From Amoebophrya sp. A120 (Eukaryota; Protista; Dinoflagellata): a stretch of DNA of 64,000 nucleotides. The stretch spans positions 4,113,709-4,177,708 of the forward strand of contig CAJINV010000006.1 in assembly GCA_905178155.1 (NCBI GenBank), in the 5' to 3' direction. Shown in pieces: positions 2,323-63,767 of this stretch. Both the position numbers and the translations under genes were made by a program. The stretch's first letter is position 1. The number at the start of each line of letters is the position of its first letter. Under the pieces are notes generated by a model. It saw only the letters and a list, made by a program, of their open reading frames with translations, was not told the origin of the DNA and searched no databases.

Positions 2323-5300
2323 CTAGGTAGTAGTCCCCCCTAGGATTAATATCCTCTTCCGTCTTGCACTTCGTTGCTTGGATTGTTTTCCGTAACCGCC
2401 CCAGATATCGGGCTTGTCCAAGCAGGCCTCCACAAGTTTCACATAGTCTTCGTCCCCCTCCACCGTCATGATATCTCTCCAGGACCTCAAATCCTGCTTG
2501 AACCGTTCGCACTTATCAAACATGAACTCCACATCTTTCAACTTCGCCACATATGAACTGCAAAAGTATCGTAGAAGTAGTACAAATTGCATTACAAATT
2601 TGCTCAGCATTACAAATGGAATTTGTAATGCGGATTTGCCTATAAGCAAAAAATTTGTGATGCATAAAAGCAATTAGTACGAGTACGATACTTTTGCACA
2701 GGATACCACATTCCAATCTTTGATATCCTGATTGAAATTCTCGCACCCCGCAAACATCCCCTATCAAAATGAAAAATTCCCCCTCCCCACATCAAAAAGG
2801 GAAATTTGTGATGCTGATTTGTGGCCACAAATCAGCTTTGTCATGCTAGAAGGCAAATAAAGATGCGGACTGTAGTGCTGGGTTGCGTGGGAAACAAGCC
2901 TTGCATCTTCAGCATGACAGGAGGCAGCTGGAACAAGTGGGAAACAGCGTGACAAATTGCCTGCAGACGAGACCACGACTGCGCCTCTTTGCCTTCTAGC
3001 AATACAAGTCGATGTATGCACTCAGATACAGCATGACAAGTTTCGTTTTCGATATGGGGAGGGAAGATTTTTCCTCACGATATCCCCCGCATCGTGGTCA
3101 CGTTGGAAACGTCCCAATGCTTCAGCTTATGGAAGCGTCAGGACTGAAATCGTCAAAGTTGAAATAGTTTGTGATGCATGAAATGCAACCCACAAAATGC
3201 CTCTCTTGCAGAGTAGGCTAGGGAAGCAGATTGCAAGCCTGTTGAGGGGTAGAAATAGAGCTGCTAAAGTTGCATGACGAAAGGCGTCTTCCTTACCGAA
3301 ACAGCATGACAAACTGGATGTAGGCACCACCAAAATTTATCATGCACCACTTGAGAGCTGGGCTGTGACTGGACTCCATTTTATGCATGGCAAATTATTT
3401 CAACTCGGTCGATTTCAAACCTGACAGATCCATACAGCTTCCGGTCGAAATACGCACACCCGAGAAACATGCCGGCCATGTTCGTAGCACCCGAAACGTC
3501 CCACGCACTGTATGACCTGCTCAAACGTTACAATCTCAAACGTTACAATAGAGTCGGGAAATCTGTGATGCAAGAAATGCATGATCTAGCCAACTCTCAT
3601 AGGACTGCGCATGACAAGTTCCGGAGTCCCACACCGCACTACAATCTGGCGAAATTTGTATTGCAGAAAGTGGAACGGTCTACGAGTCTGTAATGCTCAT
3701 GATGCAAGACAAGTCCCAGATTCTATTGTAACGTTTGAGATTGTAACACCTGAGCGGGTTATACACTGATATCGCTGTTGAAGTAGCTCGTTTCAACATC
3801 ATCGGGATTATTCAAACGGGGATACCAGCGAGCAGTAGAACTGAAGTTGGGAAAGCGCGAGAAGAGAGCGGAAAAATCTTGTATCAAATGTAAAAATGTC
3901 TGGGTCTGGAAGATTGTGAGACTTGTCATGCATATTTCGGATCACGCAAATGGCGTCTGATGCAGGCAAAAGCATCACAGGTTCTGGGCACGTCTCATGA
4001 TGCCTGTCCCGCATGAGAGACTTCCTGCTTCCGTGCGAAGAAGTGGACAGCTTTTGGCGCTCATGCAACACAAATTTTTGTGTGTTCCAGAGTTTGCATC
4101 GCAAGTTCCAACTCTTCCAGACCCAGACATTTTTGCAATCCATATCTTGGATGGCACTGCAATCCCAAATTCGAATCGGCCCGTAGAGCTCTTCGGCTTC
4201 CATATCAAATGCAAAAATGTCTGGGTCTGGAAGATTTCTAGAGTTGTCATGCATATTTCCCATGATCCGTGTCGTCTGGAATGCAGGACCTAGCATGACA
4301 GATTCTGCCAGATCCCTATCATGCTTACCCTGCATGAGAGACTGCCTCGCGATTAGGTCAAAAGTGGACAGCTTTTGATAATCATGCAACACAGATTTTT
4401 ACATGATTCAGATTTAGCATGACAAGTTGCTTTGTTCCAGACCCAGACATTTTTACAGTCGATATTCCAATTGCGTTCGCGAAACTTCTTTGGAACGGTG
4501 AAAAGTCCGGTTTCGCGTGTCCAGGTAGGGGAGTAGGATCCGGTTTAGAATATTCCGACTGGGAACCGGATATCACACCAAAGAGTGTTAACGTTAACGA
4601 AATTTGGCATGCAGGAATGCAGGATAAATGATGCCCAAATACAAATTTGTATTGCATAGCATGCATGATAGCGAAAATTTGTCATGCATGACTGCAGTGC
4701 CCCAAAACCGTTAACGTTAACACTTTTTTGCTCGATACCGGATCAAAGGTCTTGATGAAGAATTTCAGATTGAAATAATGAACAACTACTTGTTCATCTA
4801 CATCCGCACTGTTCATCTTCCGCTCCTCCTGATCGACGACGTGTGCTGGCCTACTTTCGTTATGATTTGTTCCCACGTGGGCGGAAGTACTAGATGTAGA
4901 AAACGTAGAAGAAGATGGTGGAGAATTTTCAAAAACGTAGTTCCGCTTCTTGTTTTCCCGGTCGATGTTCTCTGAATAGTTAGCCAAGTACCGTTTCACC
5001 GTTTCCGCTACCACAGAGTCTATTTTTTCCTGGTCTACCTTGGTCCTCGAAGCTGATGAAGATGAACACGTAGTTTCCCTCACCACGCGCATGATTTCTT
5101 TGTCCTGCTTCATTTCCTGTTCGAGGAGAAAGCTCAACGCGTTTTGGCTCGGCGTGGCGGTAACGACATCTGGGTTTGCTTCATCCACAGTCCGAACAGC
5201 GTGGTTGTATCAAATGTAAAAGTATCTGGGTCTGGAAGAATGTCATGCTAAAAATGAAGCAAGCAAAAATCTGTGTTGCATGAGTACCAAAAGTCGTCCA

Positions 5301-8300
5301 GTTTTGACCAAGTCGGGCGGGAGTTTCTCATGCAGAATAAGCATGAGAGAGATTGATCGCACAGAATGTGTCATGCTAGGTCCTGCATTCCAGACCTCAT
5401 GGGTCATGGAAAAGCTGCATGACAAGTCGCCTTCTTTCCAGACCCAGACATTTTTGCATTTGATAGGTTGTTAGCCGCGACGATTTTCCAGGAGGTTCTT
5501 GTCGACTCCTGTTTCGCTGCACAGTTAATCTCCCCGGTCGTGCTACTGCTACAACTACCCGCTGAAAATAAATCTTCAGGTCGTCGTGGAGAGGACAACA
5601 TCACGCCTTCTACGTCTTCGGAGTGAACATTCGTCCCGTTCTTGGATGTTGAACGATGGTTGGAATAAACAGATGAGTTGCATGCTTGTTCGGCTGCATT
5701 TCTTGTCGTCGCGGCCACGGTAGAAGAAGAAGTACTTGAAGCAGTTGCTCTTATCGTAAGGAAAAACCCCCCCTCCCCATATCAAGAAGCTACTTCTCAG
5801 AAAATTTGCAATGCTGATTTGTGGCCACAAATCTTTTTGTCTTGCAAGCAGGCAACTCTACAGTCTCCGCCGCATTATGCGGACGGTTTGTGATGCTGCT
5901 TGGGCTAAAGCATAGACATTTGTGATGCTAAGCGTCCACGTCAGAAGCTCGGTACTCAGGCACGGCATATGCCTGCAGTCCTCTACTGCAAGACAGCTCT
6001 GATTTGTGTACGGAAATCCAGCATCAGAAACTTCGTTTTGATATGGGGAGGGGGGATTTTTCCTCTCAATAGTTCTGCCGCTATCATCAGACTCGATCAT
6101 CAAAATGACGTTTTCCCAGAATATCAAATTTAAAAATATCTGGGTCTGGAAGATTGCAACTTGTCATGCTAAATCTGCAGCATGCAAAAATCTGTGTTGC
6201 ATGATTACCAAAAGTAGTCCAGTTTTGACCAAGTCGGGAGGTAGTTTCTCATGCAGGATAGGCATTAGAAAGGTCTCGCAGAATCTGTCATGCTGGGTCT
6301 CGCATTCCAGACCTCATTGGTCATGAAAAACCTGCATCACAAATCTTGCATTCTTCCAGACCCAGACATTTTCACATTTGATACAGAACACGGGCCGCCG
6401 ACGGTGGGACAGCTCTCGCGGAGGTCGGGCGGGTTGTAATTCTTCAACACTAGAACAAATGACACCAGGCGTGGCCGTGGTCCCGCGACCTCCATGGTCT
6501 GGTACAGCAGTGCGGAGTTTTCCGGATCGTCCGCCGGGGAGATCTCGGTCAAGCCCTTCTGCACGTTGTTGATGAAGCCCATCAGCTGCACAATCCGCTC
6601 CTCGACGTAGCTGTGCAGGTACATCGAGTACTTCTCCTCCCACTTCGCGACGTACTGCACCAGGTTGATCTTCACGGGCTGCGAGTTGATGCGCAGCCAG
6701 TGGATGTCCACCGGGGTTTTCGTCCCCGCAATTTCCTCTTTCAACCGCTTGAATCGCGTGATCTGCTCGTCGAACCTATGCAATGTAAATTTCCCGGACA
6801 TGTACAAAATGCATGACAAATTCCGCTAACTTGCAGTGTCCAACTTGTCATGCTAGACTAGGATTGAAGGCAAGTTTTGTCATGCAGAGACTTCTGCATT
6901 TGTACGTGTACGAGAAATTTCCTGTGGATAGAACCGCTCGAACGGCGGGATCTTGGGGCCCATGTCGATGCCGGCCGTGTCCATCAGCGTGTGGAAGTCC
7001 ATGCCGTCCTCCACTTCCGGGTTCACCAAGTCCTTCGCGCCGTCCAGCAAAAAGTCGGCGAAGGTCTCTTCGAGGGATTCCTTCCACAAAAAGCTGTGCT
7101 GCATGAACGTCTGCCGGTAGTCGATGCACTTCATCTCCGTGTTGTCGATCAGCTCGAACACGAGAGACAACAAGCATTGCATCTGAAATATCAAATGTAA
7201 AAATGTCTGGGTCTGGAAGGTTGGAACTTGTGATGCTAACTTTACACTCTAAAAAAATCTGTATTGCATGACCAGCAAGAGAGGTCTCGTTTCTGCTACG
7301 CGGGGAGGGCATTTGTCATGCGGAGTAAGCAGCAGGAAGCCCTCTAAAAATCTGTGATGCTAGGTCGTGCATTACAGACATCCTGGGTCGTGCACAATAT
7401 GCATGACAAGTTTCAGAATCTTCCAGACCCAGACATTTTTGCATTTGATATGAAAGTGCTCCTTCATCTCGTTCAGGTAATCCCCGGTACCGGTGTCCAA
7501 ACGTGGCATGGTGACCGCCGCCATGGCGAAGAATTCAGAACAAATGACACCAGGCGTGGCCGTGGTCCCGCGACCTCCATCTTCTTCCTCTTCTCTTCCA
7601 AGTAGCTCATTAGATGAATTCTGCCTTCCGTAGGAGCCATCCTCTACTTCGGTCCTCCGCAGTTCCGTCACCCGCCGGGCGATGGCTTTTCGCAAGGCCA
7701 AAATCGTGGTCCTTTCCGCGTCGAAGGCGATAGAGTCGTCGTCGAGGGCCGAAGGAGTAGTATGATCGTCTTCTGCCCCGGGAGACGGCCCGGCACAAGA
7801 ACCTAGTACCGCGGGGACACCTTCCTTATAATTTTTATTTCCTCGTACTACGATTGATTCTTTATCCTCGTGCGGGAACGGGAACCGTAGCGGCTCTCCC
7901 GACAGCGCGTTGCGGATGGATAAGTAAAACACGAGTTTCCTCCTGTCGCGACTCTGCACGCTGTCTGTTCTCTCCTTTGTTTGTTCTTGTTCCCGCCCTG
8001 CGGGCCGCTTCTTGAATGCAGTAATTATGCTCCTTTTTTTTTCCTGCTTTTTCGGATCACTATTTTTCAGAACTTCTTGATCGTGGTCCACTTTTTCTTC
8101 ATCCTCTGCTACCAACCTTCGGAACGAGAGAGGCGTGAAATAAACTGAGGAAAATGCCTGTCTTGCAGAGTAGGCAAGGGAAGCAGATTACAAGCCTGTT
8201 TCGGGGTAGAAATAGAGCTGCTAGAGTAGCATGACAAATGGCGTCTTCCTTACCCAAACAGCATTACAGACTGGATTTCGGCTCTAGTTACATTTGCCAT

Positions 8301-11051
8301 GCGCCGCTTAGAAATTGGGCTTCCATCTGGTATCGATTTTATGCATTACAAGTTATTTCAACTTTGTCGATCTCCTAGGCAGCATGATCTCGCGAGGAGG
8401 AGGAACAGGAAAGATCTAGTATGCAACCACTGCTACCAACCTTCGGAACGAGGGAGGCGTGAAATGAACTGAGGAAAATGCCTGTCTTGCAGAGTAGGCA
8501 AGGGATGCAGATTTTAAGCCTGTTTCGGGGTAGAAATAGAGCTGCTAGAGTAGCATGACAAATGGCGTCTTCCTTACCCAAACAGCATTACAGACTGGAT
8601 TTCGGCTCTAGTTACATTTGCCATGCGCCGCTTAGAAATTGGGCTTCCATCTGGTATCGATTTTATGCATTACAAGTTATTTCAACTTTGTCGATCTCCT
8701 AGGCAGCATGATCTCGCGAGGAGGAGGAACAGGAAAGACCTAGTATGCAACCACTGCTACCAACCTTCGGAACGAGGGAGGCGTGAAATGAACTGAGGAA
8801 AATGCCTGTCTTGCAGAGTAGGCAAGGGAAGCAGATTACAAGCCTGTTTCGGGGTAGAAATAGAGCTGCTAGAGTAGCATGACAAATGGCGTCTTCCTTA
8901 CCCAAACAGCATTACAGACTGGATTTCGGCTCTAGTTACATTTGCCATGCGCCGCTTAGAAATTGGGCTTCCATCTGGTATCGATTTTATGCATTACAAG
9001 TTATTTCAACTTTGTCGATCTCCTAGGCAGCATGATCTCGCGAGGAGGAGGAACAGGAAAGAACTAGTATGCAACCACTGCTACCAACCTTCGGAACGAG
9101 GGAGGCGTGAAATGAACAGAGGGTTCTTGTCGACTCCTGTTTCGTTGCAATATTGATCTCCCCGGTCGTGCTACTGCTACAACTACCCGCTGAAAACAAA
9201 TCTTAAGGTCCGGGTCCCCCGACAGGAAACGTTGTTCCGGGCCTCCCGCACAGGAAAATTGTAGGCCTCTCTGAGCCGCGGAAAGTTTCGGGCCGAGAGG
9301 CCAGCTAAGGTGCATCCGGGACCCTTGCATGAGAAACGGCAGGCCCCCCGTGGCGTGGGAAAGTTCAAGGCGAAGGCGAAACAGAGCCCAGGGCGCAGTA
9401 TTTCTCTCTCTTGCCAGGAGCTCGACAACCCCAGGGCCGCCCCCCCGGCGTGCCAGTCCCTGCCTCCCGAAGGTGAAGAAAACTCTGGAGCCCCCGCCGA
9501 GGCGGGAAAACATAAGCCTCCCGTGGGGAGAAAATTGTGGCCCGGCCGGCAGGGGAATCCAATTGGTTCCTGGATTCCGGGAAGACAATGCCCCGGGCCT
9601 TCCGGAAGGGCAAATTCCGGGCCTCCCGGGCATGAATGTGACGGCGCCCCAGGACGCAAAAGCCTCGGGGCTCCCCGGCGCAAAGGCTGTAGACGTCCCC
9701 AACCCCTCAATCCATCACTGTGCATCAGTCGTTCGGTGCGCCTGCCTTGGTCCAACAACATCACGAGCGATAGATTTTTGCTCGATGAACTCTACTCGCG
9801 AGAATGGAAGAACGCACGGCCGGTGATGCGTGGACGCGCCGAATATGCATGGCAATGTTGCGCGGGCTATGCGTGGCGCAACATATTTTTACTCATGTTT
9901 ACGCGGGCTACGCGTGGCATTTAGCTACCAACCTTCGGAACGAGGGAGGCATGAAATGAATTGACGCCCCATTCCAGAGTTGTATATGCAAAATGGCATG
10001 CCTAAAATGTTTCTCATGCGCAGCCCCATGGGAGACATTTTGTCATGCTATCTGGAAGTTTGTGATGCTGCAATCAGGATAAGGTAGTCGATTTGTCATG
10101 CGGCTGCACTACCTGCCCAAACAGCACTGCACTACGAGTCTAAACTTGTTATGCGAAACAGCCAAAACTTGTTTTTTTGTGTAGCAAAATCACCATCTTG
10201 ACTCTGGGGTGGGGACGTTTTTCCATATGATACTGTCTGTTCTCTCCTGTGTTTCTTGTTCCTGTGGTCCTGAGAGGAGCTTCTTCTTGGATGCAGCTGC
10301 AATCATGCTCCTTTTTTCTTCCTGCTTTTTTGGGTCAACAGTTTTAACAGCTTCTTCGTCGTGATCCGCTTCTCCTTCTCTTTCTTCTTGCGTCTGCGCG
10401 TCCAACTTGCCATAATTTGATGTGCCTCGGGGGCCCAGCACTGCAGCTTCCTCTTTCGTTGGTTTGGACACTCCTTCTCTTCTGCTCGCATGCCGCGATA
10501 GTATCCGGTCGCTTTTCTTGCTTCCTCGATTTTGCTCTGCACTTCTACCGAAGAACCGCGATCTTTCTGATGGCGTTCTTGGTTCGCCAATGTTCTTCTT
10601 CCCAATTCCGATCCACTCTAGTGCAACTTCTGGTTCTGCTCTGTCCCTGTCCGCTGTGATCATGTAAGAATAATCGCCGGCTTCTTCATCTTCATCCTCT
10701 GCTACCAACCTTCGGGACGAGGGAGGCGTGAAATGAACTGAGGTTCTTTTTTATCAAATGTAAAAATCCCTGGATGTCTGGAAAAGTGTAGACTTGTCAT
10801 GCAGATTTTCCATGACCCATGAGGTCTGGAATGCGGGACTTAGCATGACAGACTCTGCGAGGTCTCCGCCATGCCTGTCCTGCATGAGAAACTCCCTTCC
10901 AACTTGGTGAAAAGTGGACAGCTTTTGGCACTCATGCAACACAGATTTTTGCATGCTTCAGATTCACCATGACAAGTTGCAATCTTCCAGACCCAGACAT
11001 TTTTGCAATTCATATTTTTTCGCAACGGTGCGCAGTAGATGAGCGATTCAT
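2323..11051 (-). CDS. DUF285/BspA-like (PARCEL) repeat protein, split by introners; middle rearranged, so possibly a pseudogene
   Basis: Excising elements gives YGPIRIWDCSAIQDFSALF...FNSDISAWDVSGATNMAGMFLGCAYFDRKLKHWDVSNVTTMRGMFAGCENFNQDIKDWNVAKLKDVEFMFDKCERFKQDLRSW, stop at 2323. The frame is continuous from 6495 to 2323. Candidate start MNRSSTAHRCEK at 11051. Confidence 0.8.
2552..2705. mobile_element. TIR introner, family E
   Basis: TATGAACTGCAAAAGTATCGTA...TACGATACTTTTGCACAGGATA; TSD CCACA; excision in frame. Confidence 0.9.
2762..3082. mobile_element. TIR introner, family B
   Basis: TATC..GAAAAATTCCCCCTCCCCA / TGGGGAGGGAAGATTTTTC..GATA; TSD TCCCC; excision in frame. Confidence 0.9.
3128..3434. 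mobile_element. TIR introner, family F
   Basis: TATGGAAGCGTCAGG...CCTGACAGATCCATA; TSD CAGCT; excision in frame. Confidence 0.9.
3511..3763. mobile_element. TIR introner, family J
   Basis: Long TIR with TTACAATCTCAAACGTTACAATAG and its inverse; TSD CACTG; excision in frame. Confidence 0.9.
3882..4144. mobile_element. TIR introner, family A
   Basis: TATCAAATGTAAAAATGTCTGGGTCTGGAAG TIR; TSD TCTTG; excision in frame. Confidence 0.92.
4203..4464. mobile_element. TIR introner, family A
   Basis: Family A TIRs; TSD TTCCA; excision in frame. Confidence 0.92.
4571..4737. mobile_element. TIR introner, family H
   Basis: TATC..AGTGTTAACGTTAACG / CGTTAACGTTAACACT..GATA; TSD CCGGA; excision in frame. 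Confidence 0.9.
5208..5465. mobile_element. TIR introner, family A
   Basis: TSD GGTTG; excision in frame (VAANN-HAVRTVDE). Confidence 0.92.
5752..6071. mobile_element. TIR introner, family B
   Basis: TSD GCTCT/GTTCT; excision in frame. Confidence 0.9.
6122..6383. mobile_element. TIR introner, family A
   Basis: TSD CAGAA; excision in frame (RRPVF-WENV). Confidence 0.92.
6777..6930. mobile_element. TIR introner, family I
   Basis: TATGCAATGTAAATTTC...GAAATTTCCTGTGGATA; TSD GAACC; excision restores PFERFDEQI. Confidence 0.9.
7189..7450. mobile_element. TIR introner, family A
   Basis: TSD TGAAA; excision restores KEHFQMQ. Confidence 0.92.
8106..9117. repeat. 324-bp tandem repeat, about 3.1 copies
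   Basis: CTGCTACCAACCTTCGGAACGAG recurs at 8106, 8430, 8754 and 9078. Each unit is an exon fragment plus the internal part of a family F introner. Confidence 0.95.
9964..10232. mobile_element. TIR introner, family C, left terminus deleted
   Basis: Right end ACTCTGGGGTGGGGACGTTTTTCCATATGATA followed by CTGTC; left TIR truncated. Confidence 0.8.
10752..11014. mobile_element. TIR introner, family A
   Basis: TSD TTTTT; excision in frame. Confidence 0.9.
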
Positions 11052-12326: not shown

Positions 12327-15300
12327 TCATGTAACTCTATCAAGTGCAAAAGTGTCTGGGTCTGGAAGATTGCCAGGTTTGTCATGCATATTTTTTTTTT
12401 TTTTTTTATTGGCTCGCAAATTTTTCAGTTTCAGTTCAGTTTCAGTGGAGCGCCCCACCGGTCGAACACTTCTGATGGTGAACGAGGACCTGGGATTTGC
12501 GGCTTCGCGCCGCGACGACTTGATGGGGGTCCCGCACCCACCCTCCGTTTCCAAAAATGCAGCTTGTGCGTGAATGCTGCAAAACCTCCGACACCGCGGC
12601 ACTAAAAAGGAGCAAGCTCCTTATTCACCATACACAAACCCAAAGAAGGAAATCATCGGGAAGAGATTTTGTCGACCACAATCAATGACACCAATGGCAA
12701 CTACAACCCGAAGTAGGGGAGGGGTAGCTACTCCCGCACAACGCGCGAGATTCGTTTTCTACGTGTCGAGCCGGTAGCAGCGGCACACGTCCGATAAAGC
12801 TTTTTCCACGTCGACGAAGAGCTTGCTTTTTTTTTGCTGAATCGGAAAACCCTAAGCCCGTAAACCCATCTAATTACAACGGGAGGAAGCAGCCCCGGTC
12901 TTTTCACGAAGTTCGTAAAACGGTCAAAAATGATTAAGCTAGTGCGCTACGCTACTGACTGTGTGCACGCTTCAGAAAACTTAAGCCCACACAGGTCCGC
13001 ATTTAGCTACCGCCCGCCCTGAATGAGGCACGTCCTAACCCCGGTAGCAGCGAGGCAGATCTTGTTTTTTGAAAATTACACCGGGCGTTTGCAGAGTGGC
13101 GATAGCCGCAGATGCAAGCCTGCGGCTGTTAAGACGGTTGTAAAAAACTAGCGTACTTGTTTTTGCAAAGCTAATAGCACCCCCCAAGCAACAATCCGCT
13201 GGCTAGGCGGAAAAAAAAAGAGAAGCCCCTGCGAGGATGCGGGGTCCGCGGAACGCCTAGCGCTACAAGACGTGGATCAAGCAAGACTAAGTGCGAAGGC
13301 CACAAGACTGTAAAAGGGTAGAGACCTACATATACGTGGGACAACACCGGGCACAGGGAAGATCTAATTTTTCAAAGGCGAAGGAGCGCACGAATTTGCG
13401 ATCTAGCTCCTTGGACAAAACGAACGAAGAGCGGCAAAGACAAAGTGCTGAATAACGACTACAAGGCGGCAGGAAACATACAAAGCATACATAGCAGCAG
13501 CAAGCAAATCGGATTCACATTGCTGTGCACCGGCAGAAACTTCAATCACAACGAAACCCAGCCCCTCAGCCGCGAGGCCTTAAACTTATGCGAGGCCCAG
13601 CATATAAATTCATCATTTTTTTTAAGCTAGGAGCCGGCGTGCGTTACTTACTTACTTTTCATCATTCACTATTTAATTTTTTGCGCGAGCGGGTGCGATC
13701 TCTGAAATGTGAAGAGTGTAGCACAATTCACATACCAGGTTACGCGGGTATACGGCATTTTTTCCCGATTTGTACCTTTTCGGCTCTCGTCCTCTGGTCC
13801 TGCACTTCGTTGTCGATTCCTGTTTAGTTCCCTCACCCACTCTGCTGGCAAGACAGAAAAAAAAAACGTAGCCCCTGTCAGATTAATTAAGCAGGAAGAA
13901 GCCCACACAAAAAATTCCCTCATCTACCTAGGGGCGACTAGGCAGATGGGGTGCGCCGAAGCAGGAAGGGGATGTTTCTAGTTGCAATGAGTTTACTCGG
14001 GAAAAGCATGAGGGTATTTTGGCGGGGTCCGCTAAAAATATCGCAAAAGCGGCAATTGCAATAAAATCAGCTCTACTTCTACTCGACGGCAAGCTAGTAA
14101 GGGGCACAGCATAGACTAGAAAAACTACTGGATCTTTCACGATACGGATCCCGCCCCGCAATGCGTGGGTCCTTTTGCTTGTACGATACGGATCTTCATG
14201 ATCTTTCTCTTTCTTTATAGGTCAGCATTGCAACAGGGGCCACTCTCCCCTGTGCATGCTACCTTTTTATCTATCAGTGCTCCCCAACTTACATCCCGCC
14301 GGGTGAGGCGATTTGTATTGCTAGATTCCACCCAACTTGACTACGGGGTCGTGGGGACGTTTTTGCTTAGGATATGCGCTCTGTCATCTTCACCCCCACC
14401 GCAACAGGAATCCTCGACAATGTCCTGGACGATTTGCTGTTGTTGTTTCTCCACCTGCTGCCGCGCAGCGGCCGCCGATGAAGCAGCAGCTGCAACTTGA
14501 AGGGTCGTTGCAGCTGGTGTGCCCGCTTCTACGTGCTGGTCCGCAACTACGTCTTCTTGAAATGCTGATGCTGCGCCTCCAGGAGAGGCAACATGATCCT
14601 CGTCATGATCTTCCATGATCTTGTTTACAGGAATAACTTCTTCTTGCACGAACTTCTGGGCAACTGGTGTCCTTCCTTTACTGTGAAGAGCAGCATGTTG
14701 ACCCCCGGCACCGCCTCCACCCGTAGTCAAGCTGGTGATGGCAATCTTCCGCCTCTTGGTCGCACTTTGTCCTTCTCGCTTCTCCTTGTTGCGGCTTTTC
14801 TGTGCCGTGAAAGACAGGGCGTTCGCGAAGATTGTGATTTTGCCATGGTCTTCTTGGCCGTTGATATTAATACAACTACTTCCTAGAAATAGAAAGCGAC
14901 AGTAGAAAGAACAGCCTGAAAAAGACAATACCAAGAAGGTCAACATCTTTTCCAACAAATTGAAGTTTTTAATACTCGCTCCCCGCCGCGCGGCCAGGTT
15001 CATGACCAACAAGTCCGGCGGGAAACGAAGAAAGAAGAATTTCTTGTGGACAAACAGCGACATCAATTTGTTCTGATTTTTCGAGGGGTCGTGGTAAGAA
15101 CAACCTTAACCTTTCGGGAACAAGATGGCGCTTGAGCCAAAATGGTTTGTCATGCATATTTTGCACAAGTAATCTGTGATGCTAGGTCATGCATTACAAG
15201 TAATGCATGACCTAGCACCGCAGATTTTTAAAGGGCCTTCTGATGCGTATTCCGAATGAGAAACGCCCGCTCCGCGTAGCACAAACTGAACTCCTGTTGC

Positions 15301-19311: not shown

Positions 19312-19370
19312 GCGCGCCGACTACTTCCGTTGTCCCGTTTTCGCCATCGCAAAAAGCTGGTAGCTGTTTG

Positions 19371-32197: not shown

Positions 32198-32561
32198 TTC
32201 GCCAGGAACGTCCGCCCCCCGCCTCACACCAGGCGCGGCGCGCGTAGCTAGTGACTTAGTTCGCGGCGCGCTAGTGGGGGGAGGGTGTTTGCCTGTCGTG
32301 GCCACCTGCCGCAGACAAATGTCGCGGCCACCTCTCGCGGCCACCTGTCGCGGTCACCCTGTGTGTCGGAGGGTATGCGTTACCAGAACCCGGAAGGCTT
32401 TTCTATTTTTGAAAAATAGAGAGCTGCGCAAAAAGTTACTCTTTGCGTTTGCGCATGGCGATGGCAAACATGCTCGAAATAAATTCGAACTTCTTTGCTG
32501 CAGCGGAGGTCGCAGCTTTATGGTTTATTTCTGAGAAGGAAAAACGAATCTGACGAGGCGC

Positions 32562-33207: not shown

Positions 33208-33400
33208 AAGTCAAGCAATATAAATATTAATGCCCTCTCCGCGTAGCCAAAATTGCATTGCCTTTGCTGCTCATGCAATACAAATTTTTTTGGAATCCAA
33301 ATTCAGCATCACAAGTTGCATTCTTCATCCAGACCCAGACATTTTTACATTTCATATATGAAAAAGCCAACCAGTGGCTTCATCAGCCCGCCTGTTCCAA

Positions 33401-36664: not shown

Positions 36665-36697
36665 TGATTTCTGGTACTCGACAGTCTCTCCCTTTTG

Positions 36698-49800: not shown

Positions 49801-51552
49801 AAAAATCCAGACCCAGGTCGATAATATTTACTTGCACTTGATAGCATCCATTTCTTGTCGGGGTCGTGGCCGTTCTTAAAAATTTTCAAGGCGTGCATCT
49901 CCATCTGGTCTTGAAAAGTGCCGATGAAAGTCATCGGCGTGTCCGGCGCCATTCCCGGGAACATGGCGATTGGGAAAATCGAATTCAAAAAGTCAAAAAT
50001 CTCCGGCGGAATCCTGTCAGGGTGAATGTTGAAAATTTCCATACTATGTACTCACATGCAAATAAACCCACACGTCGTTGACAACCATCTTCTGAAATAG
50101 GCCTACGCCTAGCGCAACTACATGACAAAAGAATCTTCAAATACTCGTCCTCTCCCTGCTCCCCCTTTTTTCTCAATTCGTCTAACTTCGGGTTGGCCAG
50201 CTCCTGGATGGGTTATCATCTGCAAACACGCTCTCCGGGTCGTGTGGAACTTGTAATGCTTCTTTGACACGATATCGCGACTTTAGCTGGTTCTTTGTGA
50301 AAAAAGAATTGCTCATGTGGAAAAATTGCACCCAACTACACATATCTCCTAAAAGAACTTGTCATGCTTCCCTGCCAACTGTAGTAAACTGCTCAATACA
50401 AGTATCCGCGAACCAGCAACACAAGTTTCATCCAGGCCTCCCAGCTGACGTGTTTTTTTGTGATGCATATGGGCTTTATCAGTCCCATGATTTTGTCCGC
50501 CGACGGCTTCGGCCCCGCCTATCAAAAGGAAAAATCTTCCCTCCCCAAATCAAAACGATGTTTCTGATGCTGGACTTCCATACGCAAATCAGGTTTGTCT
50601 TACTGGAGAGGACTGCAGACCCATACCGAGCCTGAGAACAGGGGCTTTGGCTTAGGCGCTTAGCATCTAAAGCGTCTGCGCTGTAGGCCGAACAGCATGA
50701 CAAACCGCTTGCACAATGCGGCGGAGGTTGTGGAGTTGCCTTGTCGCAAGACAGACGCGATCTGTGGTCACAAATCAGCAACACAAATTTCCGAAAACGT
50801 GCCTTGCCAATATGGGGAGGGAGGATTTTTCCTCGCGATACCGCCGGGCCAATCTTCAAAACTATCTGCCCCGTAATCTGCATGGCGGAGAAGAAGAGCG
50901 CTATCCAGAGGAAAAACGTCCCCACACCAGAGTCAACATGGGGATTTCGCAACACAAATCCAGAAGTTTTGGGAGTCACGCGTGACAAGTTGCAATCCGT
51001 GGTGTAGAGCAGGTTTATGTTAGCAAGGATAGTCGCATTACAGATCCCCCTGCTTATGCCGTTCACAGCATTACAAATTCCAAAACACGAAGCAAAACGG
51101 CTCTCATGGGGATGCGCATTACAGTTTTCCTCGTACTTGCAAAACTGCATGACAACTATGGGGTAGGGAAGGTTTTACATAGGATAAGCTTGCACGCTTC
51201 CTCCACCGCGCCGGATTTCGGGGACACGTCCTTCTATCGCACGAAAACAAAACTGCTTCACTCTACTACACTTGTGATGCAAAAGATGCAACAGAGAAAT
51301 TTTCTGTGTTGCTACTTACACATGATGCATCAAGACAATGGATTTATTTTTTTAGCCGTGTTTTTATTTCTTAGGCAGAACGCATGGGAAATTTTCTGTG
51401 TCATGCTGAGCAATCTTGTGGCGTTGACGTAAAACTAGGAAAAATATTACACTCGTATACAGTGAAACACTTTTTTCCTTCGATACCTTCGCTGCTTCCA
51501 GCACCGGGTGCTGGAACTCCGTTATTAAGTGATCCCAGTCGGCTTTTGACAT
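40863..51552 (-). CDS. CAP: Cyclase-associated protein, N-terminal helical domain plus Pro/Ala linker (same gene as 36698-39847 or an adjacent gene)
   Basis: MSKADWDHLITEF...PKPSADKIMGLIKPIQELANPKLDELRKK...DPDKKWMRALTDYVKHMIAFVKT(N/D)LGMGIKWN resembles N-CAP. Needs six introner excisions and one GT-AG intron (50044-50144). The 3' limit is uncertain. Confidence 0.7.
41757..43094. mobile_element. Nested 1.34-kb non-autonomous TIR element
   Basis: TIR TCAGGCAGACAGSCCCGGGCG (20/21); 6-bp TSD AAGGAG; interrupts one subterminal unit; CTAATT/AATTAG-rich interior. Confidence 0.88.
46690..47850. repeat. Subterminal tandem array (about 90-bp units) of the 6.6-kb element
   Basis: About 11 copies of GAGGACCGAGGACCGGAGACCAAC, the inverse of the copies at 41490-41700 and 43105. 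Confidence 0.9.
48101..49346 (-). mobile_element. 1.25-kb insert with an A-rich tail, possibly a decayed non-LTR retroelement 3' end
   Basis: Flanked by a perfect 38-bp duplication (48063-48100, 49347-49384); A-rich tract at the minus-strand 3' end; no clear RT motif. Confidence 0.5.
49446..49843. mobile_element. TIR introner, family G (diverged)
   Basis: TSD GCGTC/GCATC; excision restores KKWMRALTDY. Confidence 0.82.
50214..50469. mobile_element. TIR introner, family M (diverged)
   Basis: TATC..AAACACG / CGTGTTT..CATA; TSD TGGGT/TGGGC; excision restores LIKPIQEL. Confidence 0.78.
50520..50840. mobile_element. TIR introner, family B
   Basis: TSD CCGCC; excision in frame. Confidence 0.92.
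50902..51186. mobile_element. TIR introner, family C
   Basis: TSD AGCGC/AGCTT; excision in frame. Confidence 0.85.
51235..51485. mobile_element. TIR introner, family D-like
   Basis: TSD CCTTC; excision in frame. Confidence 0.82.
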
Positions 51553-52503: not shown

Positions 52504-55500
52504 TCATTCTGGCTTCAGCGCTACTAAATGGTGCATCAATCGCTCGTTTTTCGCTAACTCCTGCCCGGACAGCCCCAGCAGCTCGTAGCAGTGGCGGACA
52601 AAGAAAACCAGGCGGATCCATTTTTTCGTGGCCTTTTTACGCAGTAGTTGTCTTCGCATTTTTTCCACTTCAACCTCAACGTCCGCGTGATTCTGATTCC
52701 CAACTATACCCTGCTCCCCGTCAAATTTTGTCTCGCCGGTCGCTCCTTCGTAGAAGAGCTCTTTCCCGGGGATCGCCAATACAAAAGGTTCCAGCACGTG
52801 TTGCAGTAACTTTTGGGCCTGAAGACCAATGAAGACCTGGTCGTGCTGCATATGATCCTTTTCTGATAGAAGTGCGGCAGAAGAAGTATCGACACTGTGC
52901 TTCTTGTTCGCTATATTTAACATTTCACGCTTGACTACTTCCTGCTCCGGTGACTGGAAATCAACAGTAGTCATGCTCTTTTCAACATTTTGACTCTCCC
53001 CCTCCACCTGCTTGTGCTTCTCCCCCTCAATACAATTTTTTCCAGCAGCATCTTGTTCGGGTGGAGAAGTAGACCCTCGCTTCAGTTTCTTCACCATGTT
53101 AGTTTTATTTCCCTTCCCCGGCGTCGTCTGCAACATCTCCATCACTTTCTCCGCATCTTCTTTTTCAGGAGCACCCTCTGGATGAAGATTTTGATGACCG
53201 TCGTGTTCCTGCTGTTCCCGCATCCCCGCCGGCGTTTCAATGTACCGCAACGGGTAATGTGAGGTCGGGAGTAAGGCGGAGGAGGACCCGCGATGTTGCT
53301 GACCTTGTTGACTGCTACAACTCGCAGCAGCAGTAGTGGTCCCAGCTGCATTGTCTTCCTTGTCGGCCACAAACGGGTTTCTTTTTCCTGGATGCTGGTC
53401 CGTTGATGTCCCAGCAGAAGGAAAAGAAGCACTCCCCCCGGAAGTCGTGATGTTCACCTTTTTCCTGTTCTTTCTGCAAGACTTTTTTGACACCAGAGCC
53501 GCTCGTCGTGTGCTGCTTGTTCCCGCCCCAATTTTATTCCTGATCAACATTTTTCTTTTCCTGATCCGTGTTTTCATCTTCCCGCCAGGCAGAAGGTGCA
53601 ACATGGAAAGACTCGTCTTCAACCGCTCGCTCAGAAACTTCGAAGTTACTTCGGGGTGGAAGAGAAGCGTCTCCGCAATGATGGGATGAAAAAAGTGAGT
53701 TCTTGGCGAGTTAAGGTTCGTTCCGTTGTTCTTACGATTGGAATCGTTCTTCGTTGTCGTGGTAACCAGATCGAGAAGAAACTGTAATGCTGGGTTCTTG
53801 TAGTCCTTTGTTGATGTTGTGCCACTACTTCCTTGACGCTGTTCATCTGCTTCGCAGTTTTCTGACTCCACCAACATGTGTACATCCTCGTCTGCAATTT
53901 TGTCGCCGCGATTTTTATCCCCAATTATACGTGGTTCTTCCTCCCCCCCATCGGATGATGTTGATTCCGATGAATCGTCGGAGGTGTAGTTGTCCTCCAA
54001 ATTGTCCTGATTTATTTGATCTCCACCCTCACTGCAAACGAGACTCATCACGAACCGGAAAAACAGCCCCGGGTCCGTGATCTTGCGCATCAGGATTTGC
54101 ACCAGTAAGGTCTTCCACTTCGGCGTGCTCGCTTCTCCTCCTTCTTGTGGCCCCGCTCTTCTCCTTGAGAGCAGCAAATTCGTGAACTTTTCGATCACTT
54201 TTTCTTTGGAAAACAAGCTTATTTCGTCCTGGGAAGTAGATGATACTGGTTCTGGCACTTGCCCCGGTCCGGCAGAGGTTTTCCTCGTCAATATACTGCT
54301 GTTGTTCCTGTTCCCACCGCAATCGAAGTTTTCCAGAAGCGCAACGGCAAGTTCTTGCAAATGGGCTGCGTCCATCGTCCCGCCCTCCGCCAGGTTCAGA
54401 AAGGGACTGACAGGTTGAAGATGTTCTTGCACTTTCATTCCGTTTGATGCTCGTCCCGCATGACAACTCGAGATGATCGCAGCCGAGCCGAAGAAGAAAA
54501 GTAACAGCTGCTTCTGCACATTGATATCAAACGCGTTTGAAGTTGTTGTAGAGAGAAACCGGAACAGGGTGAAAATCTGCTCGATCAGCAATTGGTTTTC
54601 AGCACTCCTTCGTAGTTCTTGCATCGTCGTCGTCGTCCCAGAGATGATGTTGATGTTGGCTCCTGCTGCATCGGGTCGCTGTTGTACCAACATCTTGTCG
54701 CTAGTAGTAGTGCTCAACAAGAACTCTGCATGTCGGCCTCCAGCGTGGTCCTGTCTGAGGAAAAACAGCATTTTCGCCCACAGCGACAGCCAGGTTTTCA
54801 CCTCCGCAGCAGCTTGTGCTTGTCGTGCAGCTGCGTGCGAATTTGGCTTGTAATTTTCTCGCGCAATATCAATATGTTGACCAAGGTCGGAAATAGTATT
54901 CACCGCATCCTGGTCAACAACATCGTGGTCTTCATCTTCCGAGCTTTTTCCGGACCGCTGCACTTGTTGATCAGGTACGACCAGAAGTTTATCACGAGAA
55001 AAAAGTGTTACAGTTACACATTTGTTGGAGTTTCTGCATCACAAATTTTCTCTGTGTGGCACAGAAAACTTGTAATGCGGAGATCATAATGGAAAACAGG
55101 AAGGAAACGCGACTCCCAAGCATTTCCTGCATGAGAAAGGTTGTCTGTGTTGCCGGTCTTGCATAGACTATGTGTGTAACTGTAACACTTTTTTCTAGCG
55201 ATAAAGTTTCTTCCGCAAGTAGTACAGGCTCTGGGAAGTGGTCGTCGCGTGCTGGTCCGCACTACTTTTAGTACTATCCGTCGCATGTAGAAGTTCAACA
55301 TCCTTGTTCATCATCGTCCCACGACCACCCAGCAGAAACACCGGCACGCACTTCCGGAGCCGCAGAGGGATAGCGTCCGCCGACTTCAGCTGCAGTTGCT
55401 CTTCGCTGGACAACGTCATCAACTTGGAGAGACAGAGGACGTCGAGCTCGAGAGGTGGAGGAAGCATCTTCGACGAGGAGGAACCAACCCCTTCTACAGG

Positions 55501-58500
55501 AGCGGTGAGGACACCAAGACCTTCTACGTCGCCACTCCCGACGCCATTCAGGAGAGGGAGGATTTCGTGCAAAAAGTAGTCCAGCTTTTTCTCGTAACTG
55601 TCAACGACGGTCTGCACCGCGGCATGATTATTCATCCGAGAAAGATGTTGACCTTGCGTCCCGTTAGAAGTACCAAATGTTGACAAAGACGTCGTTGTAC
55701 AACTTCCAAGCATCTTCATTTTCCAAAAGCCGCCTCCACAGAGCGTTTTTTGGACGAAGTGAAGGAGAAAGGCGACAACTTTCTTCTCCATGGTACTAGA
55801 ATAATTCGCTTGCTTCATCTGCATCATCCCGGGCCGCAGGTGGTCCCGTTTAAAAATGTTGGTCCGCCGGAGCTGCAAGAACAATTTGGCAATTTTTAAA
55901 TTCACCGCGGGAAGCAGCGCGGAGGTCGCGTGCGCCAGCGCGCCCTGGCCTCCGCGGCCGAAACCCGCGCTGCCAAACTCGCTCGCGGTGAGGGGAAACT
56001 CGTCGTAAATGTGTTTCAGCTGGGGTAGAACAACCTCTTGAATGAGTTGCAGCTCGTGGTTGACGTCGTTGTTCGAAGTAGAATTATTGCCGCAGAAATC
56101 TTCTTCCATACGACCATCGTCCACATTGTTCCCTTGATCATAATGTCCAGATCCACCACCACCACCACCACCTCTCAGCATCACCTCCAACAAAGACACG
56201 CAGTACAACCGCCGTTCCAGGTGGCTTGTGATGGTGGCGATATCGACGGTGTTCATCGCTGTATTCCCGGTCGAAGCTGTAGCTGATGTGTTGTTTTTGC
56301 ACACCTTCGACAACCGCCAAACTCGGATGATGTTCTCCACGCGCTCACGGACCTGCTGCTGCTGAAAAGAAGTAGATGTTCTTCTTGAACTACAGGTGGT
56401 TCTGGTGGCAGCCCCGGCTGCAGCTCCGCCGCCGTGCGTTTGATGTTTGGCTGACGCATGGGAATGATTCGCCGCGATTTTCACCATCATTTTCTTCTTC
56501 GCTGGGTCATCTACTACAACTTTGGGCAACACAGAAGGAGCTCCTCCTGCAGGAGAACCTGTGGACACCAACATCATTTCCGCGAGCGACAGTGCCTGCT
56601 GTTGTGAAGTGGATGTGTAGTCCACCACAACTTCTGCGGTCGTCCGTCCACATCCTGCTGCTCGTTCGTCCAGAAGTTGTTCTATTTTTGCCTCATACTT
56701 CCGGGGTCCTCCTCGTCGACCACCTCGTCCGCTACTTCCGTGCATCAGTAAATACCACAGATTTTCCAGCGCCAGACCGGACCGAACCATCCCCGGATCG
56801 AGGTTGGTGTTCGCGTTCGTGCTAGTTTGGGCGGAGAGAAAATTGGAATGCAACAGCTCGACAAGCAACTCGTGAAAGGTGAGAGTGCTGGCCGCGTTCA
56901 TCTTATTTGCTGGGGAAAAGTTCTTTTCCTTGCAGCCCTCTTCCTCTCCGTGCATGTTGATCATTCCGGAAAAATAAGAACTTGTTCCAAAGCCACCAGC
57001 ACCGGTAGTTGCACCACTCGCGGACGATTTCGAGAAGAAGAACTCGTGCCCAGCGTCGTTTTCACCTCCAGTTCGGTCCAACAGTTTTCCGCCGTTGTTC
57101 TCTACAAGAACTACACCTCCTTGTTTCATCGGCATCAAGAAGAACGTCGCAAAGAGCTTCACCAAGTACAACCCCGTCAGCTTGACGGACGAATCGACGT
57201 GCGACAGCGCCTATGCGTTGCAAAAGGAGCATCGTATTTATGCTCGTACTAAAAATCTTCGCATTTATGCATTACAAATTTTTTTGTCATAGTTAAATCC
57301 ACATTACAAATTTCATTTCTCATGCTGGGGAAATTTGTGATGCGATCTTTCATAGTACTAGTATCGGATTAATATACAACTTTTGCAGTGCATAACGCCG
57401 ATTTCAACTGGACCCGGAGCAAGGGGAAGTACGGAGTGAGCGCATCGAAGGGACCACGAGAGCTGCTGCTGCAGTTCACCGGGCTACTAGAGGTTGATGA
57501 CGATGTTAACCCACGTCCCGACTGCACGACCGCCAAAACCGCTTCCAAGTATTTCAAGACTTCCTTCCGATATCCTGTGTAAAAACGTCCCCGCGCCAGA
57601 GTTAGGATGGAGATTTTGCAACACAAGCCTAGGAGTTTTGTGAGTCACGCATGACAAATTGCACTCAGCAGTGTGGCGCAGGTTAGCAAGTGCAGCCGCG
57701 TCACAGATTCATCTGCTCATCCTGTTCACTGCATCACAAATTCCAAAACACGTCGGGAAATGGGAATGGCTCTCATGGGGATGCGCATTGCAAGTCTTCC
57801 TGTCTTTGCAAATCTGCATTACAACTCTGGTGTCGGGACGTTTTTACAAAGGATATCCGAACCGCGAGACTCAGGTCCGTGACAAGGCGAAGAATTTTGA
57901 TGGACAGGAGAACATTCATCTGCGAAATGACATATTGCCGTGCGGCCAACGCCAAGTTGATGTCCCCTGTTGTACAGTATGGATTGCAAAAATGTCTGGG
58001 TCTGGAAGATTCTGAGACTTGTCATGCACATTTTGCATGGGCCATGATGTCTGTATGTAATGCATGCAGTAACATCACAGACTTGTCGAGGGCTTCGCGA
58101 TGCCTATTCCGCATCACAAATGCCCTCTCCGCGTAGCCAAAATTGCATTCCCTTTGCTGGTCATGCAATACAGATATTTTCGGAATCCAAATGCAGCATC
58201 ACAAGTTCGGATTCTTCCAGACATCCAGGGACATTTGCATTTGATATACTACTTCTAGAAGCTCCGCCGCGGTCGTTCAACATCCTGTGGTCCCCTGGGA
58301 TAGTACTATCACGACCTTGTTGTAGTTGCAGCTGCTGCTGCTGCACGAGGTGGATCTGTTTCAGCAATTGCTGCACGAATTGCCGCAGTTGCGCCACCGC
58401 GGTCTCCCGCAATTTCGCGTTTGTGTGGGTCAAATTCTGGAAAAATTCCTGCTCAATGTTCACACGGAGCAGGTTCGGGTCGAAAAAGTTCTTGTGGGGC

Positions 58501-58832
58501 TGCGGGTCGTTGTTTTTACCATTTTGTTCAAGAAAATGTTGGGTGCTGGAGGATTTTTTGTTACGACCAGTAGAACTATTATTCATTGGTGTTCGTCCTC
58601 CACCACCGCCGCTAAACAGCTGCCGGCTTGCCTCGTGATCTTTCTGCAACCCCGCCTGGGTCGGCATCTGTATCTTTTTCGCGCGGAAATCCGTCCGCGT
58701 CGCGTTAGTCGCATGTTTTTTCGCTTTGCCCACCTTCTGCTTCACCTTCTTGAAATCCGCAGGGGCGTCGCGTTTCTGGCCCGGCAGGTTTTTCTTCCCG
58801 CCGGCCTTTTTCGCCGGTTTTTTGATGCCCAT
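52504..58832 (-). CDS. IPI1: Pre-rRNA processing protein IPI1/TEX10 (Rix1 complex) with long low-complexity extension
   Basis: N-terminal DFKKVKQKVGKAKKHATNATRTDFRAKKIQMPTQ. Four introner excisions join LVTDLSLAVRKEVL and YFPLLRVQLKSALSHVDSSVKL to ORFs 55195-57171 and 52504-54963. Confidence 0.88.
54990..55203. mobile_element. TIR introner, family D
   Basis: AAAAAAGTGTTACAGTTACACA TIR; TSD AAGTT; excision in frame. Confidence 0.93.
57212..57394. mobile_element. TIR introner, family E
   Basis: TSD GCGCC/ACGCC; excision in frame. Confidence 0.87.
57571..57855. mobile_element. TIR introner, family C
   Basis: TSD TCCGA; excision in frame. Confidence 0.92.
57978..58246. mobile_element. TIR introner, family A
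   Basis: TSD TACAG/TACTA; excision in frame. Confidence 0.88.
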
Positions 58833-59779
58833 GGCGTCGCTATCTGGTGGGTCGTTTTAGAAGTCCTCTGATATGCCCTTCTAATATCGAAGTTCCTTAA
58901 GTCTTGTAGTGAAAATTAAACACTCTCGCCTGTCGTGTGATGCACCATCAAGTAGAACTCGGGAACATATAGATGCGAGGACGCTAGTAGTGTCGCACAC
59001 TTCCTTTACTTACTTTCTACGGAATAGTAGTTTACTTGCTTCACCATCTTCTTCCTGTTCGCCTGTAACTTTTATTGGTGTAGTCGACATTGACAATTTG
59101 AACGTCGCCGGGAGTTGTTTCTCAAGGTCCTGACCTGCGAAGTTGATGTTAATATTGTAGATCTAGATGATCAATACAATGGAATAACTACAAAAAGCGT
59201 GGAAAGAAAAAATGTGGTCACCGTGGATCATCTTCCACCTTTGAAGGCGCTTCGACAACATCATTTTCTTGGCTAATCAAGATCTAATGAAAAGATTTGC
59301 ATTTGTTTCGAAGATCGGCTTTTTGAGCAAGAGGATCCAAAACCACATTACGAAACTCGTGGAGAGATTCCATTTACCAATCTTTGTAGTCGGGTCATGC
59401 CTTTTATTGTGACAATTTGAAAAACCTTTGCAACAGCGGTCATTTTACTCACCAGCTAATGGCAAAAATACCTTCCGATAGATAGATTCTGATCGAACAG
59501 TTGTGATGATCTCCTGTGGTTATCAAAAGGACGAGCCTCCAAGTTGTACGACTCGAATCTTCACAGAGGCGCACCAGAACGAGCTATGATCCAACTGTAG
59601 CACACTACACTTCAATGCGAGATGAAAGTCGAATTGGCTTTTCTTTATTCACATCTTGCAGAATTTTGCGAGATGGAAGCCGAATAATTGGCGTTTTCTT
59701 ATTAACATCTTCGAGAATTTCATCTATTAATTTCATCGTGGGGAATTTACTTTCAGCGCAGTGTTTCTTGTCACCATAT

Positions 59780-60343: not shown

Positions 60344-60517
60344 TGAAGATCATGTTGCGCCAGAAGGCGGCGGCCCCAGCAGTACAACATCAACTAGAGA
60401 GCAATTAAAACTACACGTAGAAAAAACATATAAATGCGAACCATGTAGTTGTCCTCGAAAGCGTCACGGAAACTCTTTGTTAATACACTCCGCACTTCGC
60501 AACTTCAGACTGTCACC

Positions 60518-63500: not shown

Positions 63501-63767
63501 ATCAGCATCACAAATTTCCATTTTGATATGGGGAGGGGGGATTTTTCATTTTGATAACCTCCAAAATTTATTTCGCTACTTGTTCGACGATCATCTAGAG
63601 GTACCGGCACGACAAGAGCAGCTTCTTCCACCCCTGTTCTTCTTGTCGGGGCATGTGCAATTGGCTCTTCTTGTGCAGGAGCTCCGGACCGTAACAACTG
63701 TTGAACTTCTCGGTGGTACGCGACTTCTGGCCACGACGCCGCCGGTGCTCCTGGGGTACTCTTATGC
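60518..63767 (-). CDS. 3' part of a low-complexity S/T/Q/P-rich hypothetical protein
   Basis: Joins checked across 60973-61251 and 60666-60914 lead to a stop at 60518. Upstream joins were not individually verified; the gene continues toward the window end. Confidence 0.6.
60666..60914. mobile_element. TIR introner, family A
   Basis: TSD ATGCG. Confidence 0.9.
60973..61251. mobile_element. TIR introner, family C
   Basis: TSD GTCGA/GTAGA; excision in frame. Confidence 0.9.
62203..62482. mobile_element. TIR introner, family C
   Basis: TSD GGACG. Confidence 0.92.
62655..62894. mobile_element. TIR introner, family D-like
   Basis: TSD CGAGG/CGAGC. Confidence 0.8.
63247..63556. mobile_element. 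TIR introner, family B
   Basis: TSD ACCTC. Confidence 0.9.

Follow-up and report, generated by a model that had tools for sequence, protein, structure and literature searches.

We wanted to investigate how families of short DNA elements with apparently unrelated interiors come to share one terminal pattern and one internal motif, and whether a single trans-acting protein recognises all of them. The question was raised by a stretch of 64,000 nucleotides of Amoebophrya sp. A120 (contig CAJINV010000006.1, positions 4,113,709 to 4,177,708 of the forward strand), which we refer to, in its full length, as the window. An earlier note, made from its letters alone, had suggested either a transposase or a splicing factor as the common protein. 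We found that the elements are the published introners of Amoebophrya. We propose, with a probability of roughly 0.65, that they are short non-autonomous elements with terminal inverted repeats (TIRs) and a 5-bp target-site duplication (TSD), that they are removed from transcripts together with one TSD copy, and that a 12-bp motif, RYYTGTVWTGCW, is the putative double-stranded DNA site of one transposase mobilising all families. We observed the common ends, the TSD of 5 bp and an empty site, the removal of elements from RNA-type contigs, the motif itself, its pairing at 31-33 bp and its conservation in copying lineages. These observations are best read as the work of one trans-acting protein common to all families; that part of the suggestion stands, with the transposase favoured and the splicing factor disfavoured.

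The window is gene-rich eukaryotic DNA, and its genes lie on the minus strand. The exon at 6484-6774, of 97 aa, had its best match in a dynein-family protein of Amoebophrya sp. A25 (89% identity), followed by Perkinsus (54-60%), which agrees with an Amoebophrya host for introners of the A120 type. We built a catalogue of introners independently, from ends, TSD and BLAST clustering. It holds 60 complete TIR elements of 145-398 bp, with a total of 16,180 bp, lying from 2552 to 63556 and forming 18 BLAST clusters. For comparison, metagenome contigs were scanned with the commonest TIR. The scan covered 16 of 64 parts and returned at least 146 stretches, which represent 142 distinct loci (619,517 bp including overlaps); among the matches listed (the first 80), all stretches came from one other, related assembly. 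In these loci we called 361 held-out elements by ends and TSD, with the motif not used, and the combined set comprised 421 elements. Two of the loci scanned were orthologous to the window.

The proposed terminal pattern, TATS-N4-G-N-AAA, was borne out: it matched 95 times in the window, while 3.9 matches were expected for random sequence. Exact copies stood at 85 of the 120 element ends and the looser TAT-N7-AAA at 100 of 120; both fractions are partly circular, because the ends were partly detected with the same pattern. The AAA was missing from the ends of two clusters (3128/24132 and 25799). The block of unpaired TIR positions also exists, at positions 4-7 and not at 5-8 as first described. 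Pairing at positions 4-7 was 0.55, 0.58, 0.71 and 0.38, and 0.80 at position 8, in the 421 elements (0.57, 0.55, 0.60, 0.33 and 0.77 for positions 4-8 in the window alone); within the first 30 bp assessed, it was already down to 0.65 by position 29. Within families, both ends behaved as independent draws at positions 4-7. Selection for unpaired bases was therefore rejected; these positions are free, not forced apart, since their pairing equals the level of independent ends. A splice-site role for positions 4-8 was rejected as well, 5' and 3' ends being alike. On internal and terminal branches alike in the trees described below, positions 4-7 changed at 1.6-1.7 times the interior rate, and their haplotypes recurred at either end, which perhaps reflects exchange between ends.

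The TSD was exact over 5 bp in 40 of the 60 window elements, with one mismatch in 15, two in 4 and three in 1. Among 230 well-formed held-out elements, 181 had an exact 5-bp repeat; an exact 6-bp repeat was found in none of these and in none of the 60. TSD composition was nearly flat, without target sequence preference. The ends and the short direct repeats agree with the A120 introners in the available text of PMC7789003, which gives inverted repeats of TAT, seven less conserved bases and at least three As, direct repeats of 3-5 nt, and non-canonical junctions. The terminal pattern was thus already published, since that text describes the same A120 ends. One element is missing from an orthologous locus, L087:

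60973..61251, no strand given: introner, absent from the L087 site, where a single copy of the 5-mer stands (empty site)

Between L087 and window positions 60582-61513, the introner common to both differed at 2 of 249 sites, while the flanking exon sequence was 84-94% identical.

The enrichment claimed for the internal motif was evident. Strict TGTVATGC occurred at 189 sites, of which 158 lay in the 60 elements (9.8 per kb), 26 in partial elements or arrays and 5 in 39,607 bp of background; dinucleotide-shuffled elements contained 3.9 +/- 2.0 (maximum 10 in 200 shuffles). Both orientations occurred (94 and 95), as proposed, with the exception of one family that has all its motif sites on a single strand. 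TGTTATGC occurred once in the window, as against 95 occurrences of TGTCATGC. The copy number given for each family, 5-10, was too high for strict copies: the median was 3 per element (range 0-7; none in 4 of 60). When one mismatch was allowed, we counted 6.3 per element, about one of them background. An iterated matrix extended the motif to the 12-bp site RYYTGTVWTGCW, with 5.2 sites per element and a density of 19.2 per kb, compared with 0.72 per kb outside.

The sites are arranged in pairs. A same-orientation pair 31-33 bp apart was present in 49 of the 60 window elements. Counted with one element per cluster, the pair occurred in 9.9 of 18 clusters, while random placement gave 1.7 (maximum 7 in 5000). 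With the matrix trained on the window, the held-out set replicated this result: 294 of 361 elements, and 14.5 of 30 clusters as against 3.1. The subfamily consensuses contained 16 pairs at 31-33 bp, in 8 of 9 subfamilies. Terminus and pair, taken as a single pattern, gave 17 matches in the window but none in 100 shuffles. Three turns of B-DNA measure 31.5 bp. Opposed sites showed a weaker preference for 15-17 bp, both in the window and in the held-out set. At roughly two in three ends (93 vs 43 when weighted by cluster) the outermost site faced inward, and it mostly lay 33-35 or 41-45 bp from the end; the periodicity was broad, 9-11 bp over a short range, so helical phasing of the first site to the element end is suggestive only. 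An example of the end module is found at both ends of one introner:

7189..7267, plus strand: terminus with two motif sites of the same orientation
7369..7450, minus strand: the same module at the other end of introner 7189..7450, terminus with two motif sites

Viral contigs gave no match to two patterns. The single match to the end-plus-pair pattern in prokaryotic genomes was rejected (0.8 expected by chance, no TIR partner).

We asked whether the motif acts in DNA or in RNA. A gene strand could be called for 175 of the 421 elements; among these, 452 sites were sense and 404 antisense to transcription, a sense site was missing from 17 elements and an antisense site from 22. Copies of the one-strand family were inserted both ways (10 vs 11), and across the elements the 5' and 3' TIRs were alike relative to transcription. 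It is very unlikely that a splicing factor binds the motif in pre-mRNA, or that internal stems fold the intron. Predicted folds offer some support for such an RNA-level signal: motif bases were paired more often than others (about 0.66-0.83 vs 0.45-0.66), in mixed-orientation families often motif to motif. In the one-strand family, however, only 10% of paired motif bases met another motif. A single-strand binder would moreover have to recognise both motif and complement, given the 10 and 11 orientations of that family, and one orientation was missing in 39 of 175 elements. The sites showed no dependence on the sense orientation, which a single-stranded RNA splicing enhancer would need. A direct spacing of 31-33 nt would also have no obvious meaning for single-stranded RNA. 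We consider a single-strand RNA binder unlikely because of the strand counts, the two orientations of the one-strand family and its few motif-motif pairs. The TIR stem was closed in 76-95% of positions in the predicted folds of 110 of the 175 elements.

Further, we compared the time at which selection acts. Trees were made for nine subfamilies (329 of the 421 elements; smaller clusters were left out). The four most invariant motif positions changed at 15 of 7000 sites on internal branches (0.0021) and at 180 of 7361 on terminal branches (0.0245), as compared with 1400 of 37513 (0.037) and 2753 of 39299 (0.070) for other interior sites. The motif is thus strongly conserved on internal branches and erodes on terminal branches. 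TSD pairs differed at 88 of 1645 sites (0.0535), or about 0.027 per copy if both copies mutate. Post-insertion decay of the core therefore runs approximately at the rate of the TSD clock, within about a factor of two. Conservation in transposing lineages and relaxation after insertion are the behaviour expected of a subterminal transposase site, with a possible residual constraint of up to two-fold. The earlier note regarded neutral decay in old, still spliced elements as fatal to its idea; decay of approximately this kind was found, and it counts against the splicing-factor option only. Of the changes from C at the degenerate motif position, 1 of 20 on internal branches led to T, as compared with 14 of 52 on terminal branches and about half elsewhere. 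Spacing shifts of more than 1 bp among copies were as frequent in pairs (85 of 648) as in control windows (110 of 854). Of 107 elements that had a neighbour of at least 90% identity, 97% contained the pair, as compared with 44% of 41 orphans, and sites per element fell with TSD mismatches from 5.27 to 4.61 and 4.54.

These rates also bear on whether the motif is a relic of common descent, that is, a 32-bp subterminal repeat inherited from one ancestral transposon which nothing binds now. The families are unrelated insofar as interiors of the main groups gave no BLAST alignment with each other, but several clusters share ends (1/6/12 and 4/5/15), and linkers between paired sites were slightly alike across groups (0.41 vs 0.34 +/- 0.008 shuffled), as a relic would predict. 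Within present families, nevertheless, conservation of the core on internal branches exceeds that of the remaining interior about 18-fold, and the degenerate positions exchange C, G and A while avoiding T. Internal-branch conservation and T avoidance indicate ongoing selection and not passive inheritance, so that a relic is largely refuted and, in our view, highly improbable. Common descent and binding are compatible.

We examined removal from transcripts in two ways. Reading frames were restored when introners were taken out with 5 nt each, and contigs of two runs, X2 and X3, which we guess to be RNA, lacked seven elements:

2326..7534, minus strand: host reading frame of 2166 nt after removal of 12 introners with 5 nt each (longest unspliced, 588 nt)
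52507..58856, minus strand: host reading frame of 5379 nt after removal of 4 introners with 5 nt each (unspliced, 2532 nt)
10752..11014, minus strand: introner skipped with one TSD copy in an X3 contig (10746 joined to 11015, element plus 5)
24127..26432, minus strand: gene stretch with six introners and two GT-AG introns removed in an X2 contig

The frames fix the removed length only modulo 3, because +2 and +8 restore them equally. In X2, the 363 nt between 24126 and 26433 are the exact remainder after removal of six introners (+5 each) and GT-AG introns of 130 and 132 nt. If X2 and X3 are RNA as presumed, these elements leave transcripts with ends other than GT-AG, like A120 introners. The plus-strand right-hand TSD copy GCCGC was intact at 26433 in both runs; this one site suggests that at least the first four bases of the upstream TSD copy are retained. 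The host exons were not covered by the raw reads of run X13, 98% of which ran on into unlike sequence. Introners 24853, 25799 and 26151 each had two matrix sites that formed no 31-33 bp pair at the threshold, yet they were removed in the contig; 25799 had a sub-threshold partner site at 32 bp. Within restored frames, 35 of 175 elements had no pair. In the same gene stretch we noticed a 9-nt microexon (25607-25615), which is flanked by a GT-AG intron and by introner 25349-25606 and is backed by a joint in X3. A 132-nt GT-AG intron (25139-25270, minus strand), with one copy of the motif and an end resembling TATCC, is possibly an old introner turned canonical.

Another explanation assigns the sites to a host DNA-binding protein, possibly a domesticated transposase, which sits on paired sites in chromatin, marks introns during transcription in place of the U1 small nuclear ribonucleoprotein (snRNP), and which transposition also requires or has co-opted. 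Strand-independence and helical spacing suit any binder of double-stranded DNA, every RNA-supported element has at least two matrix sites, and retro-like insertions repeatedly hit the motif (see below), as tethering to a resident protein would give. Further, core change on terminal branches remains below the interior rate (0.41), and the available text of PMC7789003 reports neither U1 nor a transposase in A120. On the other hand, change in the invariant core is twelve-fold higher on terminal than on internal branches, in agreement with the TSD clock; once an element is inserted, its pair spacing is free to drift; and pairless elements with one or two sites stay in open frames (11 of 175 have at most two sites), three being removed in contigs. 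We consider this explanation unlikely. An extended version, in which the sites at 32-bp spacing in tens of thousands of introners are bound by one domesticated integrase-like transposase that moves the elements, labels them at the DNA level for splicing without U1 and serves retroelements as a homing beacon, would make the motif a DNA-encoded intron mark; it is a speculation with a rather small chance of being correct.

A transposase acting on double-stranded DNA is, in our view, more likely than a splicing factor because of the fixed spacing, the random orientation, the internal conservation with terminal erosion, and the three spliced elements without a clear pair. In such a scheme, transposase subunits would bind paired sites on one helix face, about three turns apart. 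With the outermost site mostly 33-35 or 41-45 bp from the end, this binding would load the catalytic domain on the TA terminus. The enzyme may be an integrase-like DDE protein, judging from the published annotation of another family, and would cut at the TA ends and insert with a 5-bp stagger. After insertion the motif would be largely dispensable, while splicing would rely on the terminal stem (TIR pairing and TAT...AAA), not on internal sites.

Several observations weigh against the transposase. We found no autonomous element or transposase among long TIR pairs in the window or the 620 kb of loci; the multi-kb TATS...SATA element with a DDE open reading frame (ORF), for which the earlier note suggested a search, was not among them. 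A crude DDE regular expression, which is a weak test, had no match in 593 ORFs; Pfam gave no transposase family in 13 window ORFs (only a sub-threshold DUF285); and, as mentioned, none is reported in the available text on A120. Sites also occur in the middle of elements, and at about one end in three they face outward. Low site counts in orphans may be partly an artefact, because the matrix was trained mostly on large families. One subfamily (16839, 22740, 33401, 36752, 38386) was orientation-biased (14 vs 2, borderline after nine comparisons), and the raised pairing of motif bases in predicted folds belongs here too. The core changes on terminal branches at only 0.41 of the interior rate; should mutation affect the intronic TSD copy alone, the neutral level is about 0.05 and the core is about half-constrained after insertion. 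Three orthologous pairs differed at 2 of 88 core and 19 of 401 other sites, a small sample. The regression of core on interior change across copies had a slope of 0.24, which terminal branches with master-lineage change would give too.

The remaining elements of the catalogue are listed below, without strand:

2552..2705: introner, family of about 150 bp, exact 5-bp TSD; others 34274-34418, 34885-35038 and 57212-57394
2762..3082: introner, family of about 311-321 bp; other 37689-37999; ends in common with the 321 bp family
3128..3434: introner, family of about 306 bp, ends without AAA; other 24132-24437
5752..6071: introner, family of about 321 bp, consensus with three 32-33 bp pairs; other starts 15762, 18332, 20072, 21838, 24504, 34499, 50520, 63247
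7189..7450: introner, commonest cluster, about 250-270 bp, 21 copies; starts 3882, 4203, 5208, 6122, 7189, 10752, 16839, 18700, 20493, 21073, 22740, 25349, 33401, 35102, 36752, 37346, 38060, 38386, 39084, 57978, 60666
20799..21027: introner, group of about 210-250 bp; other starts 26151, 37041, 51235, 54990, 59780, 62575
21391..21675: introner, family of about 280 bp, all consensus sites one-stranded, both orientations within genes; other starts 35440, 50902, 57571, 60973, 62203
49446..49843: singleton introner with 7 strict motif copies; other singleton starts 3511, 4571, 6777, 17960, 19553, 24853, 25799, 50214

We observed no frame selection on element length (classes 151/126/144 in the 421 elements). 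In the nine subfamily alignments, private insertions peaked at 3 nt (80) and 6 nt (30), with 55, 36, 32 and 21 for 1, 2, 4 and 5 nt, and deletions had no triplet bias. This suggests a triplet-biased insertion process, which could bear on low-complexity, fast-evolving proteins.

Two introners of the window are split by insertions:

12338..15379, no strand given: split introner, poly(A)-tailed retro-like insertion at a motif site, 5-bp TSD intact
27680..33356, no strand given: split introner, exact 5-bp TSD, 5.4-kb insertion just after a motif site, with a 132-bp tandem array

Multi-kb TIR pairs with TSD (27680-33356 and others in L039, L061 and L073) were rejected as autonomous elements, being short elements with nested insertions. 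Frames of 1000 aa at 28-32 kb were rejected as genes, as they are readings of the tandem array (at least 27 copies, 28.3-32.3 kb). The insertion at 27817-33229 has no evident TSD and a hairpin about 10 nt from one end; we take it to be Helitron-like. In the window and loci there were 9 poly(A) runs of at least 12, and the motif directly followed 5 of the 9. Of these five, three border foreign insertions (window 12378-15160; L061:6215-6935; L041:1078-1143) and one borders a low-complexity tract. The other junction of the window copy lies at a motif in the end of a different introner family (14316-14374). A second insertion family (L004:9473-10727; L039:3862-4492) interrupts two different motif copies, each between G and C, and shows duplications of 13-21 bp. 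Repeated retro-like insertion at the motif is possibly homing into harmless sites. Elsewhere, the region 41400-49400 is GC-rich, with inverted arrays of a unit of about 60 bp at 41.4-41.8 and 47.1-47.9 kb, and four of its ORFs had no Pfam match. Orphan introner ends lie near 48050-48100 and 49345-49392. Positions 8100-9120 hold three tandem 324-bp copies, 98-99% alike, each with introner interior and exon-like sequence.

In summary, families so far classed as unknown or mixed are brought together by a common site at a fixed spacing, which implies one mobiliser. The paired motif may serve as a search signature for the autonomous element and as bait in pull-downs, and two jobs are separated, internal sites for copying and the terminal stem for splicing. 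According to the available text of PMC7789003, A120 has about 30,000 introners, U1 was not detected, and mobilisation and U1-less splicing are stated open questions; Farhat et al. argue there against general transposase-mediated mobilisation. The mobilisation question thus becomes testable, with elements and ends already in print limiting the surprise. In the literature on these introners within our scope (including PMC12005148, PMC11282704 and bioRxiv 2020.10.14.339549; figures, the last 20 A120 rows and subscription papers fell outside it), no internal motif or spacing is described. Provisionally, the paired motif grammar is apparently undescribed, the elements and ends being known.

We compared the elements with known systems, as far as the accessible parts of the sources allow. 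Published A120 family lengths of about 149, 209, 252, 260, 278, 305 and 319 bp (PMC7789003; PMC12130899) correspond to our subfamilies of 150, 209, 252, 262, 279, 306-311 and 321 bp, whereas published TSD length varies and that of the window elements is uniformly 5 bp. Most A120 families among rows 1-38 of 58 are filed as TIR DNA elements of unknown superfamily (PMC12130899). The same source annotates family 38, of 810 bp, as "Ginger, 5-bp TSD, TA/TA termini" with integrase-like ORF fragments; at about 810 bp it differs from the 145-398 bp window elements. Euglenid nonconventional and Fritillaria non-canonical introns likewise have a MITE-like (miniature inverted-repeat transposable element) origin and non-canonical junctions, and in euglenids TIR pairing draws the intron ends together; they differ in terminal consensus, and no paired internal motif is described for them in the text covered (PMC11282704). 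Several short sites inside the ends are also known from the Emigrant MITE, whose subterminal repeats are bound cooperatively by Lemi1 proteins (PMC1636448), and from Tn7-like ends, where DNA structure limits how several TnsB sites are placed (PMC13632737). The introner system would appear to operate in this manner. Those systems belong to other superfamilies with other termini, whereas introner sites span the whole element, are common to many families and lie in introns. The resemblance to IS3EU that the earlier note saw in the ends holds for the TA..TA termini, which were required in our detection, and extends to the lack of target preference in IS3EU/GingerRoot (PMC10045372, PMC6839031). The TSD of that group is usually 6 bp and not 5 (PMC10045372, PMC6839031), and GingerRoot TIRs measure 100-150 bp (PMC6839031), as compared with about 30 bp with an unpaired block at 4-7 here. 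Membership was rejected on the 5-bp TSD, and by analogy the introner system would appear to work like IS3EU/GingerRoot without belonging to it.

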